Source: Mobula hypostoma
Taxonomy: Eukaryota
DNA length: 64,000 bases
Reading direction: 5' to 3'
NCBI RefSeq assembly: GCF_963921235.1
Contig: NC_086108.1
Location: 73,224,001 to 73,288,000 of the forward strand
Part shown: positions 20,549 through 63,845 of the stretch, piece after piece
How the letters are laid out: every line of letters begins with the position of its first letter
How positions within the stretch are numbered: position 1 is the first letter of the stretch
Translations under genes and position numbers: made by a program
The notes under the pieces: generated by a model
What the model was told of the DNA's origin: nothing
What the model saw: the letters and a program-made list of their open reading frames with translations, nothing else
Database searches by the model: none

Positions 20549-22150
20549 AAACATAGAAACATAGAAAATAGGTGCAGGAGTAGGCCATTCAGCCCTTTGA
20601 GCCTGCACCGCCATTTATTATGATCATGGCTGATCATCCAACTCAGAACCCTGCACCAGCCTTCCCTCCAAACCCCCTGACCCCCGTAACCACAAGGGCC
20701 ATATCTAACTCCCTCTTAAATATAGCCAATGAACTGTCCTCAACTGTTTCCTGTGGCAGAGAATTCCACAGATTCACCACTCTCTGTGTGAAGAAGTTTT
20801 TCCTAATCTCGGTCCTAAAAGGCTTCCCCTCTATCCTCAAACTGTGGCCCCTCATTTTGGACTTCCCCAACATCGGGAACAATCTTCCCGCATCTAGCCT
20901 GTCCAATCCCTTTAGGATCTTATACGTTTCAATCAGATCCCCCCTCAATCTTCTAAATTCCAACGAGTACAAGCCCAGTTCATCCAGTCTTTCTTCATAT
21001 GAAAGTCCTGCCATCCCAGGAATCAATCTGGTGAACCTTCTTTGTACTCCCTCTATGGCAAGGATGTCTTTCCTCAGATTAGGGGACCAAAACTGCACAC
21101 AATACTCCAGGTGCGGTCTCACCAAGGCCTTGTACAACTGCAGTAGTACCTCCCTGCTCCTGTACTCGAATCCTCTCGCTATAAATGCCAGCATACCATT
21201 CGCCTTTTTCACCGCCTGCTGTACCTGCATGCCCACTTTCAATGACTGGTGTATAATGACACCCAGGTCTCGTTGCACCTCCCCTTTTCCTAATCGGCCA
21301 CCATTCAAATAATAATCTGTTTTCCTATTTTGCCACCAAAGTGGATAACTTCACATTTATCCACATTACATTGCATCTGCCATGAATTTGCCCACTCACC
21401 CAACCTATCCAAGTCACCCTGAATCCTCTTAACATCCTCCTCACAGCTGACAATGCCACCCAGCTTCGTGTCATCCGCAAACTTGGAGATGCTGCATTCA
21501 ATTCCCTCATCCAAGTCATTAATATATATTGTAAACAACTGGGGCCCCAGCACTGAGCCTTGCGGTACCCCTGCCATTCTGAAAAGGTCCCGTTTATTCC
21601 CACTCTTTGCTTCCTGTCTGCTAACCAATTCTCTATCCACATCAATACCTTACCCCCAATACCGTGTGCTTTAAGTTTGCACACTAATCTCCTGTGTGGG
21701 ACCTTGTCAAAAGCCTTTTGAAAATCCAAATATACCACATCCACTGGTTTTCCCCTATCCACTCTACTAGTTACATCCTCAAAAAACTCTATGAGATTCG
21801 TTTGACATGATTTTCCTTTCACAAATCCATGCTGACTTTGTCCAATGATTTCACCGCTTCCAAATGTGCTGTTATCACATCCTTGATAACTGACTCTAGC
21901 AGTTTCCCCACCACCGACGTTAGGCTAACCGGTCTATAATTCCCCGGTTTCTCTCTCCCTCCTTTTTTAAAAAGTGGGGTTACATTAGCCACCTTCCAAT
22001 CCTCAGGAACTAGTCCAGAATCTAACGAGTTTTGAAAAATTATCACTAATGCATCCACTATTTCTTGGGCTACTTCCTTAAGCACTCTAGGATGCAGACC
22101 ATCTGGCCCTGGGGATTTATCTGCCTTCAATCCCTTCAATTTACCTAACA
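20549..22150 (-). mobile_element. CR1 LINE, 5'-truncated, frameshifted ORF2
   Basis: KSPGPDGLHPR, NYRPVSLTSVVGK, YLDFQKAFDKV, GVPQGSVLGP, KFADDTK and C-terminal RPHLEYCVQFWSP motifs. (CTATGTTT)n tail. Confidence 0.95.
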
Positions 22151-43479: not shown

Positions 43480-46165
43480 CCAAAAAGGAGAAAGGCACAC
43501 AGGAAGTGGATGTGGTGTAATGACTAAGGGGCAGAAGAAAGAGCTTGAAAGTTAGAGGAGATAATTAGAAGATAGAACCTAAGCTGTGAGAAATCAGTGT
43601 ATAGACTACACTATTGTCAAGAATTGACCTTTCAGTTGTAAAGTTGGACTTAGCTGATTTTCATGCAGCGTCTTTTTCTACCATTGCATGCATAGATCAC
43701 TGATCTTGGTTAGAGCCACTACAGTTAAAGCTGATCCCTTCTATACCATGCAGTTTTAGTTATGCTTTTGCAACTACACCTCCTGTTCTCCAGTTACTAG
43801 CTGCTGCTGCTGCCTCTCATTACACACCCCCTTTTCCTGCAAAACAGATAAAGGTGAGTTAGGTACTGTTTTTTTCTTTGGGTCCTGTTATAGTCATGGT
43901 TGAAAATCGACAGGGTGAATTGGGAGTGAGTCTTGCAGTAATGTTAAATATCTGAGTGAGAAGTGAACCAGACAGTGTTAGATGTGAATGCTAATCAATA
44001 GAGATTAATGTTAGGGGAGTGCTGAGAGTGTAGTGCTTAGAAATATAAAAAGGCTAATGCTGAGGGATATGCCTTTGAAGATTGCATTTATTAAGCTCAA
44101 GCATGCTCATGAGATCACTGGACTTTGTGGCGCTGCACTTGAGTTACTGAGGGTTGACCTAGTTTATAGAATGTTGGACATTGAATAGTATAGCACAGTA
44201 CAGGTCCTTTGGCCCACAATGTTGTGCTGACCTTTCACCCTTCTCTAAGATCAATCTAATTCCTCCCTCCAACAGAGCCCTTTAATTTTGTTTTCATCCA
44301 TGTGCCTATCTAAGAGTTTTTTAAATGTCAATAGACAATAGGTGCAGGATTAGGCCATTTGGCCCTTTGAGCCAACACCACCATTCACTGTGATCATGGC
44401 TGATCATCCACAATCAGTAGCCCGTCCCTGCCTTCTCCTCATATCCCTTGACTCCGCTATCATTAAGAGCTCTATCTAACTCTTTCTTGAAAGCATCCAG
44501 AGAATTGGCCTCCACTGCCTTCTGAGGTAGAGCATTCCACAGATCCACAACTCTCTGGGTGAAAAAGTTTTTCCTCAACTCCGTTCTACATGGCTTACCT
44601 TTTATTCTCAAATTGTGGCCTCTGGTTCTGGACTCCCCCAACATCGGGAACATGTTTCCTGCCTCTAGTGTGTCCAATCCCTTAATAATCTTATATGCTT
44701 CAATTCAGATCCCCTCTCATCCTTCTAAATTCCAATGTATACAAGCCCAGTCACTCCAATCTTTCAACATATGACAGCCCCGCCATCCCGGGAATTAACC
44801 TCGTGAACATCCGCTGCACTCCCTCAATAACAAGAATGTCCTTCCTCAAATTTGGAGACCATAACTGTACACAATACTCCAGGTGTGGTCTCACCATGGC
44901 CCTGTACAACTGCAGAAGGACCTCTTTGCTCCTATACTCAACTCCCCTTGTTATGAAGGCCAGCATGCCATTAGCTTTCTTCACTGCCTACTGTACCTGC
45001 ATGCTTACTTTCAGTGACTGATGAACAAGGACACCAAGATCTCGTTTTACTTCCCCTTTTCCTAACTTGACACCATTCAAATAGTAATCTACCTTCCTGT
45101 TCTTGACACCAAAGTGGATAACCTCACATTTAACCACATTAAACTGCATCTGCCCACTCACCCAACCTGTCCAAGTCATCCTGCATTATCTCAATATCCT
45201 CCGCACATTTCACACTGCCACCCAGCTTTGTGTAATCTGCAAATTTGATAATGTTACTTTTAATCCCTTCATCTAAGTCATTAATGTATATTGTAAATAG
45301 CTGCGGTCCCAGCACTGAGCCTTGCGGTACCCCACCAGTCACCGCCTGACATTCTGAAAGGGACCCGTTGATCCCTACTCTTTGTTTCCTGTCTGCCAAC
45401 CAATTTACGATCCATGTCAGTACCCTACCCCCAATACCATGTGCTCTAATTTTGCCCACTAATCTCCTATGCGGGAACTTATCAAAGGCTTTCTGAAAGT
45501 TCAGGTACACTAAATCCACTGGCTTTCTCATGTCCATTTTCATAGTTACATCCTCAAAAAATTCCAGAAGGTTAGTCAAGCATGATTTCCCCTTCATAAA
45601 TCCATGCTGACTCGGACCGATACTGTTACTGCATCCAAATGTGCCGCTATTTCATCTTTTATAATTGACTCCAGCATCTTCCCCACCACTGATGTCAGGC
45701 TAACTGGTCTATAATTCCCTGTTTTCTCTCTCCCTCCTTCCTTAAAAAGTGAGATAACATTAGCTACCCTCCAGTCCTCAGGAACTGATCCTGAATCTAT
45801 AGAACATTGGAAAATAATTACCAATGTGTCCATGATTTCTAGAGCCACCTCCTTAAGTGCCCTGGGGTGCAGACCATCAGGCCCTACGGATTTATCAGCC
45901 TCCAGTCCCATCAGTCTATCCAACACCATTTTCTGCCTAATGTGAATCTCCTTCAGTTCCTCCGTTACCCTAGGTCCTCCGGCCACTATTACATCTGGGA
46001 GATTGTTTGTGTCTTCCCTAGTGAAGACAGATCCAAAGTACCTGTTCAACTCGTCTGCCATTTCCTTGTTCCCCATAATAAATTCACCCGTTTCTGTCCT
46101 CAAGGGCCCAACTTTGGTCTCAACTAATTTTTTCCTCTTCACATACCTAAATAAGCTTTTACTGT

Positions 46166-46393
46166 TGAAGCACCTTCAATTACTCCAAAAGACTGAGGTT
46201 TGGTAAAATACCAAAAGGCTTTTATTCGCTGTACAATACGACCTCCACAGTGAGTGTCTGCCCCGGACTGAGGAGGAGGGGCAAGGTGAACACCTTTATA
46301 CAGGACTCTGTGGGAGGAGCCACAGGGGCAGTCAGCAGAGAGGTGTGTCCAGACAGGTAACCGAGTTACAACATATATACATGGTTTACCACA
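46166..46393 (-). repeat. 3' LTR (228 bp)
   Basis: 8 substitutions and 1 indel versus 50395-50623 by manual alignment. Confidence 0.95.
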
Positions 46394-46411
46394 TTCACCC
46401 CTCCTTTTTTT
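46394..46411 (-). other. Polypurine tract
   Basis: AAAAAAAGGAGGGGTGAA immediately before the 3' LTR on minus. Confidence 0.85.
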
Positions 46412-46461
46412 AAAAAGAGTCCCGCGGGGTGAAGTGACTGACAATATTACAAGAAGTATAT

Positions 46462-49179
46462 TTACAGGTTAAGTCTATCAGGCGGTCGAGTCCGTCGCTG
46501 TGATCTACGTAGCACCGGCGATGGCGGTTGTGCTGGCTCCGGCCTGACTTCAGATACCAGCACATTAGGCGTCGGTAATCCCTCGTGCATGTGCGTCGCG
46601 CCCGGTATGGGAGTGTCGTGTGGTGTCTGTATAGGGTTTGGGCTGCACGGTGTCTCGTAGGTACATACATTGGTGGGTACGGGGTCATTAGTCACCACGG
46701 AGTGTTCAGGGTAGGGGCCTGGATCTCCTGCGGGCGCCAGGTCACAGACGGAGACCGTGTCCTCCCACCAATCAGGTAAAACCACATAGGCATACTGGGG
46801 GTTCGCATGAAGTAAGTGAACCCTCTCGACCATCGGGGAGTATTTATTGCTCCTCGCATGTTTCCAGAGCAGCACTGGCCCCGGGGACATCAGCCAAGAT
46901 GGTAGGGTGGTTCCAGCGGTTGATTTTCTGGGAAAAGAAAAGAGCCGCTCATGAGGGGTGGCATTGGTGGCTGTGCATAACAGGGAGCGGATGGAGTGGA
47001 GTGCCTCGGGAAGGACCTCCTGCCAGCGGGAGACCGGCAGTCCCTTTAACCTGAGGGCTACGAGTGTGGCTTTCCACACTGTGCCATTCTCCTTCTCTAC
47101 CTGTCCATTCCCCTGGGGATTATAGCTCGTGGTCCTACTGGTTGCAATTCCCCTAGCCAGTAGATATTGGCGCAGCTCGTCACTCATAAACGAGGACCCT
47201 CTGTCACTGTGGATATAGCATGGGTATCCGAACAGAGTGAAGAGCTTGCGCAGGGCTTTTATAACTGACGTGGTAGTGGTGTCGGGGCAGGGGATGGCGA
47301 AGGGGAACCGCAAGTACTCGTCAATTACGTTAAGAAAGTACACATTGCGGTCGGAGGAGGGAAGGGGGTCCTTAAAGTCAACACTCAGTCGCTCAAAGGG
47401 GCGGGTGGCCTTGATGAGTGGTGCCTTTTCGGGTCGGTAGAAGTGCGGTTTGCATTCTGCGCAGACTTGGCAGTCCCTGGTCATCATCCTGATCTCCTCA
47501 AGGGAGTAAGGCAGGTTCCGGGCTTTCACGAAGTGGAAAAGCCGGGTGACTCCCGGGTGGCAAAGGTCTACATGTAGGGCGTATAGCCGTTCAATCTGCG
47601 CGCTGGCGCATGTTCCCCGGGATAGGGCATCGGAGGGCTCGTTGAACTTCCCAGGCCTGTACATGATGTCATAGTTGTAGGTGGAGAGTTCGATTCTCCA
47701 CCTCAGAATTTTATCATTTTTGATTTTGCTCCGCTGCTGATTATTAAACATGAATGTGACTGAGCGCTGGTCAGTTAGCAGTGTGAACCTTTTGCCGGTA
47801 AGATAGTGCCTCCAGTGCCTTATAGCTTCCACTATGGCCTGGGCCTCTTTCTCTACCGCAGAGTGCCGAATTTCAGGGCCTTGAAGGGTATGGGAGAAGA
47901 ACGCCACTGGTCTTCCTGCCTGGTTGAGGGTAGCAGCCAGCGCAAAGTCGGAGGCGTCACTCTCTACTTGGAAGGGAATGGCCTCATCCACCGCATCCAT
48001 TGCTGCTTTGGCAATGTCCCCTTTTATGCGGTTGAAGGCCGCGTGGGCCTCGGCAGAGAGGGGGAATGTGGTGGACATGACCAGGGGGCGGGCCTTGTCT
48101 GCATAGTTAGAGGCCCATTGGGCGTAATATGAAAAGAAGCCCAGGCACCTTTTGAGGGCTCTGAGGGTATTGGGAAGAGGGAGTTCCAACAAGGGGCGCA
48201 TACGGTCGGGGTCAGGGCCAATGACTCCATTTTCCACGACACACCCAAGGATAGCAAGTCGAGTGGTCCCAAATACACACTTGTCCTTGTTATAGGTGAG
48301 GTTGAAAGATTTGGCCGCTTGGAGAAATTTTTGGAGGTTGTTGTCGTGATCCTGCCGGTCGTGACTGCAGATGGTGATGTTATCCAGATATGGGAACGTG
48401 GCCTTCAGTTGGCACTGGTCCACCATCTGGTCCATTGCCCTCTGGAAGACAGATACACCATTCGTGACACCAAAGGGGACGCGCAGGAATTGATAAAGTC
48501 TGCCGTCCGCCTCGAGGGCAGTGTAAGGGCGGTCCTCCCGGCGGATGGGGAGCTGATGGTAAGCGGATTTTAGGTCTATGGTCGAGTACACCTTGTACTG
48601 TGCTATCTGATTGACCATATCCACGATGCGGGGTAGAGGGTACGCGTCGAGCTGCGTGAACCTGTTGATGGTCTGGCTACAGTCCACGACCATCCTATTC
48701 TTCTCCCCGTTCCGAACAACCACCACCTGCGCCTTCCAAGGACTTGTGCTTGCCTCAATGACCCCCTCCCTGAGCAGCTGCTGCACCTCCGACTTAATGA
48801 AGGCTCTGTCCCCCACGCTGTACCTCCTGCTTTTAGTTGCCACGGGTTTACAGTCAGGGGTCAGGTTGGCGAACAGCGGTGGGGGAGGGATCCTGAGGGT
48901 GGAGAGGCCGCAAGTGGTATCGGTAGTGCGGCAGTTAGCATGATGTTGGGTGGGATGCGCGGGTCTGTGTGTGTGTGTGGTCAGTAGCAGGGTACGTGAC
49001 ATATCTCTACAAAACAGGGGATTTATGACAGTAATTGGCGGGAGGGGCCCATCATACTCCATTGTCACGCTTTTCAGGTAGCTCTGGAAGTCCAACCCCA
49101 ACAGCACAGGGGCACACGGTTGAGGCAAGACCAGTAACGTAAAGTCCCGATATTCTGTGCCCTGCACCACTAGTATCAC
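46462..49179 (-). CDS. pol: Gypsy Pol (end of protease, RT, RNase H, integrase), 905-codon open frame
   Basis: RT: SPW, IDLKSAYHQL, PFG, YLDN. RNase H: ESDASD..EKEAQAI..TDQ. IN: H-x4-H..CQVC, HSDRGSSF, GNGQVEKENG. No chromodomain seen. Confidence 0.92.
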   Translation of the reverse strand: MILVVQGTEYRDFTLLVLPQPCAPVLLGLDFQSYLKSVTMEYDGPLPPITVINPLFCRDMSRTLLLTTHTHRPAHPTQHHANCRTTDTTCGLSTLRIPPPPLFANLTPDCKPVATKSRRYSVGDRAFIKSEVQQLLREGVIEASTSPWKAQVVVVRNGEKNRMVVDCSQTINRFTQLDAYPLPRIVDMVNQIAQYKVYSTIDLKSAYHQLPIRREDRPYTALEADGRLYQFLRVPFGVTNGVSVFQRAMDQMVDQCQLKATFPYLDNITICSHDRQDHDNNLQKFLQAAKSFNLTYNKDKCVFGTTRLAILGCVVENGVIGPDPDRMRPLLELPLPNTLRALKRCLGFFSYYAQWASNYADKARPLVMSTTFPLSAEAHAAFNRIKGDIAKAAMDAVDEAIPFQVESDASDFALAATLNQAGRPVAFFSHTLQGPEIRHSAVEKEAQAIVEAIRHWRHYLTGKRFTLLTDQRSVTFMFNNQQRSKIKNDKILRWRIELSTYNYDIMYRPGKFNEPSDALSRGTCASAQIERLYALHVDLCHPGVTRLFHFVKARNLPYSLEEIRMMTRDCQVCAECKPHFYRPEKAPLIKATRPFERLSVDFKDPLPSSDRNVYFLNVIDEYLRFPFAIPCPDTTTTSVIKALRKLFTLFGYPCYIHSDRGSSFMSDELRQYLLARGIATSRTTSYNPQGNGQVEKENGTVWKATLVALRLKGLPVSRWQEVLPEALHSIRSLLCTATNATPHERLFSFPRKSTAGTTLPSWLMSPGPVLLWKHARSNKYSPMVERVHLLHANPQYAYVVLPDWWEDTVSVCDLAPAGDPGPYPEHSVVTNDPVPTNVCTYETPCSPNPIQTPHDTPIPGATHMHEGLPTPNVLVSEVRPEPAQPPSPVLRRSQRRTRPPDRLNL

Positions 49180-50368
49180 TACACAACCCCCCCCGGATGT
49201 CTGTTGTATGCGACCTGGAGGCCATGGTGACCCTCCGACTTACCGGCTGTATCGTGAGTCCACAATGCTGCACCGTGGCCGGGTGGATAAAACTCTCCGT
49301 GCCGCCTGTGTCAAACAGGCAGCTTGTCCTGTGCCCCTCCACCAGGATGTCCATCATTGACCTTGCGAGCTGGTGGGGAGCGCTTTGGTCGAGGGTCACG
49401 GAAGCCAGGGTGGGGTCGCTGTCTTGGTCCGGCATGGTGGGGTGCCCCGAGAGCACCCGTTGGTCGTAGGCGGTGGGAGGTGGCGCCAACCAAGATGGCC
49501 GCCCCCATGTCTCGCATGTGGTGGTGGCGTGCAGGGAAGATGGCGGCCCCCATGTCTCGCACGTGGTGGCAGTGTGCCGGGAAGATGGCGACCCCCATGT
49601 CTCGCACGCGGCGCTGCTCGATCCCGCTCGCAGGTTTGGACTTACAGACCTTGGTGAAGTGGCCCTTCTTTCCGCAGCTGGAGCAGGTAGCTTGTCGGGC
49701 CGGACAGCGTTTCCGGGGGTGCTTCTCCAGTCCGCAGAAGTAGCACTTTGCGGACTCACGACTGGCTGCAGCCGAGGTCGATTCGCCAGCAGGTTGCGGG
49801 GTCTGCGGCGCCCACGAGGCCATTGGGGGATCGCATGCCTGGAGAGCCTCGGAGTTATGCAGAGCAGCCTCCAACGTATCAGCCAGCTCCATCGCCGAAC
49901 CAAGGGTAAGATCGGCTTTTTCCAGCAGCCGCTGGCGCACGTACACTGACCTGGTCCCCGTGACGAAGGCGTCCCTCACTAGGAGTTCTGCATGCTGCGC
50001 CGCCGTCAGCTCCTGGCAATTGCAGGCTCGCACGAGCGACCGTAGGGTCTGGACGAACTCAGCACTCGATTCCCCGGGGCGTTGTCGCCGTGTCGCTAAA
50101 CGGTGCCGAGCATAGACGCTGTTTATCGGCCGCAGGTATTGTCTTTTGAGTGCGTTCATTGCGCCGTCGTAGTTCGGCTGGTCTCTGATCAGCGAATAGA
50201 CCCGTGGACTGACCCTGGAGAGTAGAACTCTGCACTTCGCTACGGGGTCGGTGCTTTAATCTCCTCTAGATACGCTTTGAAGCAGGCCAGCCAGAGCTCG
50301 AAAGCGTTTCCAGCTTCAGGTGTTTGCGGATTGAGGTCTAATTTTTCTGGTCTCAGGGCCTGTTCCAT
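49180..50368 (-). pseudogene. gag: Gypsy gag-protease with about 3 frameshifts
   Basis: ATG at 50368 (MEQALRPEKLDLNPQTPEAG). Two CCHC knuckles (CYFCGLEKHPRKRC, CSSCGKKGHFTKVC) and protease LFDTGG. Frame changes near 50255, 49620 and 49190. Confidence 0.85.
49492..49610. repeat. 45-bp tandem repeat (~2.6 copies) between gag knuckles and protease
   Basis: Units start at 49492, 49537 and 49582 and encode CETWGxPS.. Confidence 0.9.
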
Positions 50369-50377
50369 GTTTTAAAA

Positions 50378-50393
50378 TGTACAGCGAATAAAA
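50378..50393 (-). promoter_or_regulatory. PBS-position sequence complementary to the element's own LTR (candidate self-priming site)
   Basis: TGTACAGCGAATAAAA (50378-50393) is the exact reverse complement of 50449-50464. No TGG start. Confidence 0.75.
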
Positions 50394-50394
50394 T

Positions 50395-50623
50395 TGAAGC
50401 ACCTTCAATTACTCCAAAAGACTGAGGTTTGGTAAAATACCGAAAGGCTTTTATTCGCTGTACAATACGACCTCCACAGTGAGTGTCTGCCCCCGGACTG
50501 AGGGGGAGGGGCAAGACAAACACCTTTATACAGGACTCTGTGGGAGGAGCCACAGGGGCAGTCAGCAGAGGGGTGTGTCCAGACAGGTAACCAAGTTACA
50601 ACATATATACATGGTTTACCACA
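50395..50623 (-). repeat. 5' LTR (229 bp)
   Basis: Minus strand TGTGGTAAAC...GCTTCA, with TATAAAA at 50524-50530 and AATAAA at 50450-50455. Confidence 0.95.
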
Positions 50624-51948
50624 ACTATCCTCCTTTATATTCTTGGCTAGCTTGCCTTCGTATCTCACCTTTTCTCCCTGTATTGCCTTTTTAGTTATCC
50701 TCTGTTGCTCTTTAAAAGTTTCCCAATCCTCTGGCTTCCCGCTCATCTTTGCTATGTTATACTTCTTCTCTTTTATTTTTATACTATCCTTGACTTCCTT
50801 TGTCAGCCACTGTCGCCCCTTACTCCCCTTAGAATCTTTCTTCCTCTTTGGAATGACTGGATCCTGCACCTTCTGTATTATTCCCAGAAATACCTGCCAT
50901 TGTTGTTCCACTGTCATCCCTGCTAGGGTATCTTTCCAGTCAACTTTGGCCAGCTCCTCCCTCATGGCTCCATAGTCCCCTTTGTTCAACTGCAATACAG
51001 ACACTTCCAATTTTCCCTTCTCCCTCTCAAATTGTAGTTTAAAACTTATCATATTATGGTCACTACCTCCTAATGGCTCCTTTACCTCGAGTTCCCTTAT
51101 CAAATCCAGTTCATTATATTGCCCCTCCCTAATGTACCTGCCTTCACAGCCTGTCCTGACACCCATCACTCTCTGTGTAAACAACATACCTCTGACATCC
51201 CCCCTATATTTTCCTCAAATCACCTTTAAATTATTTTCCCTCGTATTAGCCATCTCTGCTCCGGAATAAAGGGTCTGGCTATCCACTCTATGTCTCATCC
51301 TCTATCAAGTCACTTCTCTCCAACAAGAAAATCCCTAGCTTATTCAACCTGTCCTCAGAAGACATGCTAGTCCAGGCAGCATCCTGGTAAATGTCCTCTA
51401 AAGCTTCCACATTCTTCCAATGAAGAGGCGACCAGAATTGAACACGATATTCCAAGTGTAGTCTAAACAGAGTTTTATAGAGCTACACCATTATCCCGTG
51501 GCTTCTCCAACCAGTTCTTCACAGAGTTTCCCCAAAATCATACTGGCCAGATTTCTTCCTTTTTTTACCACCAGGGAAGTGGCCTAAAACTGTGACGTTT
51601 ACTTGCTTCCTTGCCATTATGCTCTTCACTGCTTCCAGTCAGCTTCTGTTTGCAACACTCGCAGCATTTGCTTTTGCTAAAGTGATCTGCCCTAAAGAGA
51701 CATAAGTTTGCTTTAATATTTCAAGTATTAATGATTTCTATATTGGACTTCTACTGATGCACTAAGCTAATGAATAGCATTGTTAACACTGGATACATAA
51801 AGCAATTAGGCGAATGAGGAGTGAGCCTGAAGCTGGCAAATTGCCTTGATCAGAAACGATCTCTGTGAGCTAATCAAGCATCCCAATCCTGGTAACTATT
51901 TCTGGGTGTGTGCAGTGTGGCCACCTACAATCTCCTGTCAATTTTCAC

Positions 51949-60950: not shown

Positions 60951-63845
60951 CACTAAGCAATTATCATCAACAGTTCACTTGCAATACCAGAGGAAATAAC
61001 ACACCGGATCATGGCTATGCCACCATCAAGAATGCCTACCGTGCTATTCCACGCCTTCATTTCGGGAAGTCTGATCACCTGGCTGTACTTCTACTCCCTG
61101 AGTATAGGCAGAGACTGAAGACTGCAGCACCAGCAGTGAAAACCTGTTGCAACGAATGAGGCGGACCCAAGTGCAGGACACAGGCACGGAGATTTGGTTA
61201 AGATGCAGATGTGAATGGCAAACAGGAGGGAGAGCAAGTAGGCAGAAGACGGACAGAATTTATCTTGACTCGGAGAGTAGAGAAAGAAATGGCGGACAAA
61301 ACTCTTCTTAGTACGGAGAGACAGAGTTACACTGAAGTAAAACTCTAGAGACCTATCTTGGCGCGGAGAGGCTGGGTTTCACAGGTAAACCTCTGAACTG
61401 GAATTGAGCTTAGAAAACTGATCTTGACACGAAGAGACAGAGTTTCACAGGTAATTCTCGATACTGGAGCAAAACTTAGAACATACAGTCCTCAGCGGCC
61501 AGGAAACATTAATTACCACAAAGGCAAAACCAACAATCTGGCAACTAGTGGTTGTAATGCTGGGGTTCTTATGCTGCAGGTCCTAATAGAAACCAGGTGT
61601 GTCGTCATCAAAGAGAATTAGGAGCAAATGGGAAATTAACCATTGGAACAGTGGCACAATCATAAGAAATTAGGAGAAAATAGGGAATTAACGATCGGGA
61701 CCGTGACAGAACCAAGGGAAGCACAGGGGTGTCTACAGGACTGCTTTGAATTGGTGGACTGGACTGTATTCAGGGATTCATCGTCGAACCTGGGATAAGT
61801 ATGCTGCAGTTGTTACCGACTTCATTAAAACCTGCGTGGATGAGCATGTGCCCACAAAGACTTACTGTACATTGCCAAACCAAAAGCTGTGGATGAACCA
61901 GGAGGTACGTTGTCTGCTGAAGGCTAGATCCATGGCATTCAAATCTGGAGATCCAGGCCTGTACCAGAAAACCAGGTATGATTTGCAGAGGACTATTTCA
62001 AGTGGGAAGAGACAATCTTGAATGAGGTTGGAGGTGACATCAGATGTATGGCAACTCTGGCAGGGTTTGCAAGATATTACTTCCTACAAAGCAAAACCCA
62101 ATAGCATGAATGGCAGCGATGCTTCACTACCAGATGAACTCAACAACTTCTATACCCACTTTGAAAGGGAGAACACAACTACAGCTGTGAAGATCCCTGC
62201 TGCACCTGATGGCCCTGTGATCTCTGTCTCAGAGGCTGATGTTAGGTTGTCTTTAAAGAGAGTGAACCCTCTCAAGGCGGAAGGTCCGAATGGAATACCT
62301 GGTAAGGCTCTGAAAACCTGTACCATCCAACTAGTGGGAGTATTCAAGGACATTTTCAACCTCTTACTGCTACGGGAGAAAGTTCCCACTTGCTTCAAAA
62401 AGGCAACAATTATACCAGTGCCTAAGAAAAATAATGTGGGCTGCCTTAATGACCATCGCCTGGTAGCACTTGCATCTAACAGTGATGAAATGCTATGAGA
62501 GGTTAGTCATGACTAGACAGAACTCCTGCCTCAGTAAGGACCTGGACCCTTTGCATTTTGCCTATTGCCACAATAGGTCAATGGCAGACACATTCTCAAT
62601 GGCTGTACTCACTGTTTTAGACCACCTGGACAACACGGACACCTGTCAGGATGCTGTTAATCGACTATAGCTCAGCATTTAATACCATCATTCCCACAAT
62701 CCTGATTGAGAAGTTTCAGAACCTGGGCCTCTATACCTCCCTCTGCAATTGGATCCTCACCTTCCTAACTGGAAGACCACAATCTGTGTGGATTGGTGAT
62801 AACATCTCCTCCTCACTGACGATCAAAACTGGTGCACCTCAGGGGTGTGTGCTTAGCCCACTGCTCTACTCTCTATATACACATGACTGTGTGGCTACAC
62901 ATAGCTCAAATACCATCTATAACTTTGCTGATGATACAACAATTGTTGGTAGAGTCTCAGGTGGTGACGAGAGAGCGTACAGGAGTGAGATATGCCAACT
63001 AGCAGAGTGGTGCTGCAGCAACAACCTGGCACTCAACATCAGTAAGACAAAAGATCTGGTTGTGGACTTCAGGAAGGGTAAGGCAAAGGAACACATACCA
63101 ATCCTCATAGAGGGATGAGAAGGGGAGAGAGTGAGCAGCTTTAAGTTCCTGGGTGTCAAAATCTCTGAGGATCTAACCTAGTCCCAACAAATCAATGTAG
63201 TTATAAAGAAGGCAAGGCAGCAGCTATACTTCGTTAGGAATTTGAAGAGATTTAACATGTCAATAAATACACCCACAAACTTCTATAGTTGTACCGTGGA
63301 GAGCATTCTGACAGGCTGCATCACTGTCTGGTATGGAGCGGCTGCTGCACAGAACCGAAAGAAGCTGCAGAAGGTTGTAAATCTAGTCGGCTTCATCTTG
63401 GGTACTAGCCTACAAAGTACCCAGGACATCTTCAGGGAGCTGTGTCTCAGAAAGACAGTGTCCTTCATTAAGGACTTCCAGCACCCAGGGCATACCCTTA
63501 TTTCACTGTTACCATCAGGTAGGAGGTACAGAAGCCTGAAGGCTCACACTCAGCGATTCAGGAACAGCTTCTTCCCCTCTGCCATCTGATTCCTAAATGG
63601 ACATTGAACCCTTAAACACTACCTCACTTTTTTTAAATATACAGTATTTCTGTTTTTTGCACGTTTTTTAATCTATTCAATATGCATATACTGTAATTGA
63701 TTTACTTATTTATTTATTATTATTATTTTATTCTTTTTTTTCTCTTCTATATTATGTATTGCATTGAACTGCTGCTGCTAAGTTAATAAATTTCACTTCA
63801 CATGCCGGTGATAATAAACCTAATTCTGATTCTGATTCTGATTTT
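60951..63845 (+). mobile_element. Rex1/Babar-type LINE, 5'-truncated, frameshifted
   Basis: EN end HFGKSDH. RT motifs [33 protein letters not shown]-terminal LPSGRRYRS..RNSFFPSAI. AATAAA and (ATTCTG)n tail. Confidence 0.92.
61145..61708. mobile_element. Solo LTR (564 bp) inserted in the Rex1 LINE
   Basis: TGT...ACA termini. TSD-like AAACC/GAACC (61140-61144, 61709-61713). LINE sequence resumes after it. Confidence 0.7.

Follow-up and report, generated by a model that had tools for sequence, protein, structure and literature searches.

A Ty3/Gypsy retrotransposon of Mobula hypostoma whose reverse transcription is probably primed by a 5' fragment of its own RNA

The window analysed in this work, a stretch of 64,000 nucleotides of the Mobula hypostoma genome, contains on its minus strand a Ty3/Gypsy LTR retrotransposon of 4.46 kb, at whose 5' end lies the primer-binding site (PBS) considered here. 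The gag-pro-pol region encodes two CCHC knuckles, an aspartyl protease, a reverse transcriptase (RT) with the motif YLDN, RNase H and integrase. The domain order protease–RT–RNase H–integrase, the paired LTRs beginning with TG and ending with CA, the target site duplication (TSD) and the polypurine tract all identify a Ty3/Gypsy element, and its closest PDB match was the Ty3 RT (E 1e-48). A chromodomain or an SH3_Tf2-1 domain gave no match at E ≤ 0.05 in the window integrase region or in five homologues, and the two knuckles, the YLDN motif and the lack of a chromodomain match described in the initial annotation were all found in the window element. The two LTRs were identical in 221 of 229 columns. 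The host site is a LINE, and contigs carrying other copies of this LINE skip positions 46160-50624. The features are as follows, in window coordinates.

50628-50624 (5' copy, ATAGT) and 46161-46165 (3' copy, ACAGT), minus strand: 5-bp TSD, one mismatch
50623-50395, minus strand: 5' LTR, 229 bp, TG..CA
50525..50530 (LTR 94-99), minus strand: TATAAA, TATA box predicted from sequence
50497..50501 (LTR 123-127), minus strand: TCAGT, initiator-like site, at whose A (50499) transcription is predicted to start and the primer to have its 5' end
50449..50464 (LTR 160-175), minus strand: LTR arm, predicted 3' end of the self-primer, from its complementarity to the PBS, the fold and 50 fossils (see below)
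between 50449 and 50448, minus strand: predicted cut, from fossils in which LTR 175 is followed by the base complementary to the spacer
50394..50448, minus strand: 55-nt loop comprising the remainder of R, U5 and one spacer base, starting with GCC
50394, minus strand: single-nucleotide spacer between LTR and PBS
50378..50393, minus strand: PBS, complementary to the LTR arm, with a 15-nt family core and one variable base
46462..50368, minus strand: gag-pro-pol, in several frames in the window copy
46394..46411, minus strand: polypurine tract, followed by two A and then the 3' LTR
46393-46166, minus strand: 3' LTR, 228 bp, with a second copy of the arm at 46235-46220

Three 45-nt tandem repeats lie at 49492-49626, between the Gag knuckles and the protease. 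LINE-type RT frame fragments, which we take to be CR1-like and others, occur at 20643-21924, 45139-46175, 50405-51214 and 62022-63118, and one of them is interrupted by the Gypsy element.

No TGG follows the 5' LTR, and TTT stands at the start of the PBS. Instead of a tRNA complement, minus-strand positions 50393-50378 match, base for base, the reverse complement of 50464-50449 in the 5' LTR, with 55 nt between the arms, and the same 16-mer arm is carried by the 3' LTR. None of 1000 shuffled LTRs reached a 16-nt complement, and the RNA fold (z = -6.2 to -6.4) was equalled by none of 200 shuffles, so that the perfect pairing across a 55-nt loop reported in the initial annotation was confirmed in its coordinates as well as by these controls. 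Measured against the published rule for self-priming, a complement of at least 10 nt located 0-5 nt after the 5' LTR (PMC6317226), the element has 16 nt at offset 1. The AATAAA of the LTR (50455-50450) sits within the arm, and the initiator-like A at 50499 lies 31 nt past TATAAA. No match was obtained in an Rfam search.

A hairpin described earlier in the loop is indeed present near the U5 end, but the sequence given for it, TTGAAG-CAC-CTTCAA, is that of the plus strand, the element strand reading TTGAAG-GTG-CTTCAA. It lies outside the predicted minimum free energy fold, where it competes with a stem beginning directly after the arm, and its sequence was not shared by the U5 ends of relatives. 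A second stem is predicted in which the GCC that opens the loop pairs with a GGT close to the end of U5. This stem (RCC..GGY) was rejected as a conserved feature, for it recurs by eye but beats shuffles in only one of 22 families.

Normal LTR-PBS junctions, with at most one mismatch, numbered 702 in the Mobula hypostoma genome. The 67 family copies compared were the best matches of similarity searches and are therefore biased towards similar copies; all 15 core pairs were kept in 51 of them, 14 in a further 14 and 12-13 in two. At least 14 of the 15 core pairs were thus retained in 65 of the 67 copies. At the 16th base of the PBS, 29 of the 67 copies have A and 36 have G. Copying back of the primer at this position was considered and rejected, since the choice of A or G followed markers of sub-lineages (Fisher p 2e-7 and 4e-6) and so represents an ordinary subfamily variant. 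Two double-sided changes, one at position 11 and one at position 15, set apart a sister subfamily of this genome, for which 72 junctions were counted; 30 of its loci yielded 27 arms, and position 11 was paired in 26 of these.

The pairing was also found in more distant relatives. Among 80 metagenome loci, 45 had enough flank to be searched for LTR pairs, and 15 of these had the element's own pair; the window element makes 16. In 14 of these 16 elements the own 5' LTR gave a perfect PBS complement of 13-17 nt, a length reached by none of 1000 shuffles in each case, and in 12 of the 14 the complement began one base past the CA. The two misses were L109, with 7 nt to its 5' LTR and 16 nt to its 3' LTR, and L071, with a decayed end, for which 13 nt were recovered when the test was anchored on gag. 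As controls, host flank beyond the 3' LTR gave 0-7 nt of complement, and comparison of each PBS with the LTRs of other families gave 0-9 nt, with a single exception of 12 nt. In the second test, anchored on the start of gag, 32 of 87 loci were testable, and a hairpin of 11-18 nt was found upstream of gag in 27 of these 32 relatives (about 50-65 % Pol identity); the hairpins differed in sequence but kept the same register. No hairpin of at least 11 nt was found in the other five (L060, L073, L081, L109 and L110).

When 22 families were compared through their representatives, Watson-Crick pairs filled 281 of the 286 cells of positions 1-13, and a single position showed as many as four kinds of pair; the count of 281 arises partly by construction, because the arms were chosen as the best run, and the real control is the shuffle test on LTR pairs. 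Compensatory covariation between LTR and PBS was found both across families and in the sister subfamily. The arm ended in AA and the PBS started with TT in all 22 families, RCC came next after the arm in 17, and a duplex of 11-18 nt with a loop of 21-70 nt was present in 21. AATAAA or ATTAAA fell within the arm in 12 of the 22 families; the remaining 10 arms had no canonical poly(A) signal, and in L043 an AATAAA was located in the loop rather than the arm. A TATA motif at a fixed distance from the arm was absent in most relatives, so the primer length of ~50 nt proposed below may be specific to the family in the window.

Information on how the duplex is used came from a class of aberrant insertions, here called fold-back fossils, in which the sense strand of the LTR runs to base 175 and then continues as the complement of the spacer base and U5. 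Junctions of this arm-to-minus-strand type were found at 50 loci (control 0), compared with the 702 normal junctions, or about 7 %; a looser pattern gave 62 loci. All of the first 30 fossils examined continued as antisense LTR, which rules out a simple deletion between the arm and the U5 palindrome as their source. Read on the other strand, a fossil consists of an LTR (mostly whole), the spacer and an antisense LTR from base 175 backwards. Among the 50 fossils, 39 reached the LTR start, seven crossed U3 and entered the polypurine tract and pol, three stopped at LTR 124-126 and one (L324) ended near 121, before a common repeat. Exact 5-bp TSDs flanked 29 of them, eight had TSDs with one mismatch, five had worse ones and eight had none, a pattern indicating that most fossils formed before integration. 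An in-place inversion of DNA between arm and PBS was rejected as well, as it would leave the reciprocal junction with equal frequency, which was not found at all (0), and as there is a U3 end next to each of the two TSD copies. Fossils of this type also occur in the sister subfamily, built with its own arm sequence.

The three fossils that end at the predicted start site do so at LTR 126 (L319 and L328) or at 124-126 (L304), after which the sequence jumps to internal or host DNA; microhomology was seen at the jump in two of the three. Further stops, which count against this estimate of the 5' end, were noted at LTR 146 (L335) and at 143 (L331, probably a deletion). In L335 (contig C40) the fold-back is joined to a second antisense LTR that restarts at the first minus-strand base. 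Polyadenylated retrocopies, from which the poly(A) site might have been mapped, numbered zero. Among 30 junctions of sushi-like control elements there were no fold-back fossils, with about two expected at 7 %, a difference that is not significant. The fossils show that pairing between PBS and arm acts during reverse transcription; any inverted repeat of 16 nt could also make a plus strand that has gone beyond the PBS change template, and give fold-backs without any involvement of priming.

These data are best accounted for if the element primes reverse transcription from a 5' piece of its own RNA, about 50 nt long and cut after the arm, a reading to which a probability of roughly 0.7 is assigned. 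Transcription would start near LTR 125, as suggested by the promoter spacing and the three fossil stops, and the leader would fold so that the arm, ending in AAUAAAA, pairs with the PBS. The RNA would then be cut directly after the arm; both the cut and its nuclease are predicted features, and by analogy with Tf1 the element's RNase H is probably the cutter. A capped primer would result, likely ~50 nt long as judged from the LTR sequence, of which only the last 15-16 nt would be paired, the leader remaining unpaired. First strand transfer would take place via the segment of R beyond LTR 175. The primer would stay attached, so that plus-strand synthesis would occasionally copy through it (~7 % of surviving junctions), and such read-through followed by snap-back or template switching would generate palindromes of DNA bearing U3 at both ends, and integrase would insert these with a 5-bp TSD. 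The simplest reading of the stops at 124-126 in the three loci is that plus-strand synthesis copied a retained primer as far as its 5' end, where transcription had begun. The arm-PBS duplex would in addition hide the poly(A) signal of the 5' LTR, likely a side benefit in the window family. The initial proposal of tRNA-independent self-priming is thus better supported than when it was made, through covariation across families and fossils at the exact primer junction.

Self-priming could instead proceed from the other end of the RNA, with the arm copy in the 3' R trimmed or cut after AAUAAAA and the whole genome serving as primer. The presence of AATAAA or ATTAAA in the arm in 12 of 22 families would place the arm close to the RNA 3' end, and the seven of 50 fossils that continue antisense through U3 to the polypurine tract and pol also fit such a primer. 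This route is nevertheless unlikely, because it requires loss of the poly(A) tail together with the 3' portion of R, only 55 nt separate the PBS from the 5' copy of the arm, with which it folds, and the three start-site stops could be explained only with an extra template switch. A shorter primer of 15-16 nt, of the Tf1 type, with transcription starting at the arm itself, is less probable still. The longer fold-backs would then be snap-backs of the plus strand on its own U3-R, and the 39 of 50 fossils that reach the LTR start match that prediction; a TATA-like run 25-30 nt before the arm in L045, L047 and L049 would fit transcription from the arm. In the window family, however, TATAAA lies 66 nt before the arm with an initiator-like site 31 nt after it, unlike the sushi-like control, where the arm itself starts ~31 nt past a TATA-like motif (27 of 30 loci), and the three stops at 124-126 would be left without explanation.

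The hairpin might also serve only to hide the 5' poly(A) signal or to help packaging, with a host RNA (a tRNA, a tRNA half or another RNA) as the primer. The arm does overlap AATAAA in the window family, and the tRNA screen (37 genes from 20 stretches with Rfam tRNA hits, of Lys and Cys type with one doubtful Leu), in which the PBS matched Lys and Cys genes over at most 4 nt, excludes little, the tRNA-primed control elements having failed it too. A host primer is nonetheless the least probable of the readings considered and is given very little weight: a PBS beginning with TTT rather than TGG offers nothing with which a CCA end can pair, and the 22 families have different PBSs, each matching its own LTR. 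Concealment of the poly(A) signal alone does not fit the 10 arms without a canonical signal or the location of AATAAA in the loop of L043, and a regulatory hairpin would need neither a fixed register to the LTR end nor one-sided fossils at that very base. Other Gypsy lineages of the same genome keep intact TGG PBSs, presumably of the Pro, Leu and Ser types.

Rays and a catshark supplied the nearest named proteins (76-93 %); next, at 53-67 %, came a large group of single polyproteins of 1175-1340 aa. Named members of this cluster came from corals and a jellyfish, with two matches from an anemone, and no relatives were found among viral contigs. Clade members L208-L216 occur in contigs filed under bacterial MAGs, where they are probably host contamination. 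Two CCHC knuckles were present in 75 of 83 full-length homologues. The RT motif (window 48381-48392, minus strand, and homologues) read xxDN in 91 and xxDD in 27 of 118 sequences, the second Asp usually being Asn in the window clade.

RT-RNase H trees (a quick one of 63 rows and a careful one of 24 rows, three rows with fewer than 230 profile positions having been removed) were built with elements of the Mobula hypostoma genome as references. These were sushi-like elements with SH3_Tf2-1 (PF24626), seven Ser-PBS Mag-like elements, Gmr1-like elements and Pro-PBS elements, the lineage names Mag-like and Gmr1-like and the tRNA types being our own presumed assignments. In both trees a long stem led to a single clade (100/100) of the window element and its relatives, which fell inside none of the reference groups, the trees being open at the base, and the sushi-like elements formed a separate clade, also with 100/100. 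The view that the element is not a chromovirus is supported insofar as its clade lies outside that of the genome's sushi-like elements. Its description as Mag-like was not established, as the clade has a long branch of its own, apart from the Ser-tRNA-primed Mag-like elements; these have YLDD where the motif was read, which makes YLDN a trait of the window clade and not a sign of Mag affinity. AU tests rejected neither sisterhood with the sushi-like elements (p 0.065) nor with the Mag-like elements (p 0.37); self-priming may have arisen here separately from that of Tf1/sushi.

In Tf1, base-pairing with the PBS involves the first 11 nt of the RNA, and the cut by RNase H falls between bases 11 and 12 (PMC7175516, PMC4600332), and a title in the reference list of PMC6317226 states that the Tf1 primer is not removed. 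Tf1 and Tf2 of Schizosaccharomyces pombe, Tj1 of S. japonicus and the Tf1/sushi chromoviruses in general resemble the window clade in having no tRNA PBS and a self-complement adjacent to the LTR. The window clade differs from them in its separate position on the tree, in its two CCHC knuckles and in giving no chromodomain or SH3_Tf2-1 match. Whereas the Tf1 primer comprises 11 nt at the RNA 5' end, that of the window clade would be ~50 nt long, with an unpaired leader and an overlapping poly(A) signal. The analogy with Tf1 drawn initially therefore holds for the self-pairing PBS but needs amending for the arm, which, from promoter spacing and the three fossils, is probably not the 5' end of the transcript but lies ~35 nt further in. 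The geometry also differs from that of the sushi-like elements of the same genome, used here as a positive control, in which a self-complement of 10-11 nt lies some 170-300 nt from the LTR end. In these elements (L381-L410) the arm follows GATAA(A/G)A by ~31 nt in 27 of 30 loci, a Tf1-like geometry.

Two CCHC knuckles are typical of Mag elements, and the Mag lineage (A, B and C clades; SURL, Mag) shares with the window clade a compact structure, short LTRs and a 5-bp TSD in addition to the knuckles. It differs in having a tRNA PBS, where none is present here, and the Ser-PBS Mag-like clade of the same genome is separate and has YLDD. In three of these Mag-like elements (L172, L173 and L175) a 6-nt T-rich spacer, longer than usual, separates the LTR end from the TGG PBS. 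A PBS for tRNA-Ser, -Leu or -Arg is given for mosquito Mag elements in the relevant part of PMC3286476.

Cigr-1 is a compact single-ORF element with LTRs of ~245 bp. The window clade may match Cigr-1 or one of the MolGy/PolGy clades, and would in that case already be named, its priming mode undescribed. The mollusc and annelid Gypsy clades concerned (Cigr-1, MolGy/PolGy) are defined by RT/RNase H alone, and the term 'PBS' does not occur in the parts of PMC6238403 and PMC8556966 that treat them; Cigr-1 is labelled as Mag in one row of a published supplement. No clade name was obtained from the literature. Saci2/lennie was rejected, having a 4-bp TSD, an ORF of ~1400 aa and, in lennie, a tRNA-Leu PBS (from the passages in PMC12471100 and PMC4558846) against a 5-bp TSD and 1175-1340 aa here, and so was Troyka, for which the corresponding passage of PMC12440569 gives CG..CG termini and a 3-bp TSD against TG..CA and 5 bp.

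Repbase entries sometimes note self-priming, so that it is quite possible that the family has already been catalogued as self-primed. No report of self-priming for the window clade was found in the literature searched, a scope to which Repbase, GyDB, Dfam and subscription journals did not belong. The priming of the clade is not described in the accessible portions of PMC12471100, PMC4558846, PMC12440569, PMC2871265, PMC3670739, PMC6934838, PMC7472051 and PMC2774666. In PMC6317226, self-priming is predicted, in the passages concerned, for Tcn1 chromoviruses and for the plant Ty1/copia TAR lineage (Houba, Osr-1), so self-priming beyond Tf1/sushi is already in print; TAR and Tcn1 belong to another superfamily or host kingdom, and those passages contain neither an overlap with a poly(A) signal nor primer fossils.

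Self-priming has been shown experimentally for Tf1 of fission yeast and elsewhere has mostly been predicted from complementarity. The present case concerns a large animal clade beyond the sushi-like group, with covariation, in which genomic accidents of reverse transcription mark the 3' end of the primer to the base and, in three cases, likely its 5' end. It yields exact and cheap predictions, namely a transcription start near LTR 125 and a cut after 175, and offers a general method, as fold-back fossils can reveal the primers of extinct families. A broader picture is put forward tentatively, as somewhat doubtful in its entirety: an animal-wide clade (corals, jellyfish, anemones, cartilaginous fish and other marine hosts) with separately evolved self-priming, a long capped 5'-fragment primer, a duplex that both primes and hides the poly(A) signal, and double-U3 insertions that record both primer ends. 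If this is true, the long capped fragment, cut directly behind an A-rich arm that often doubles as poly(A) signal, would be a new type of primer. Self-primed elements would presumably escape silencing by tRNA fragments directed at the PBS. The results also bear on the order in which tRNA priming and self-priming arose in LTR elements, a question raised in the part of PMC3601003 in which hairpin priming is proposed as ancestral.

As insertions, the fossils (L269-L331) are palindromes of ~405 bp, consisting of a whole LTR, one base and the first 175 bases of the LTR reversed, flanked by 5-bp TSDs. Having no internal region, these ~405-bp palindromic insertions could be taken for MITEs by annotation tools.
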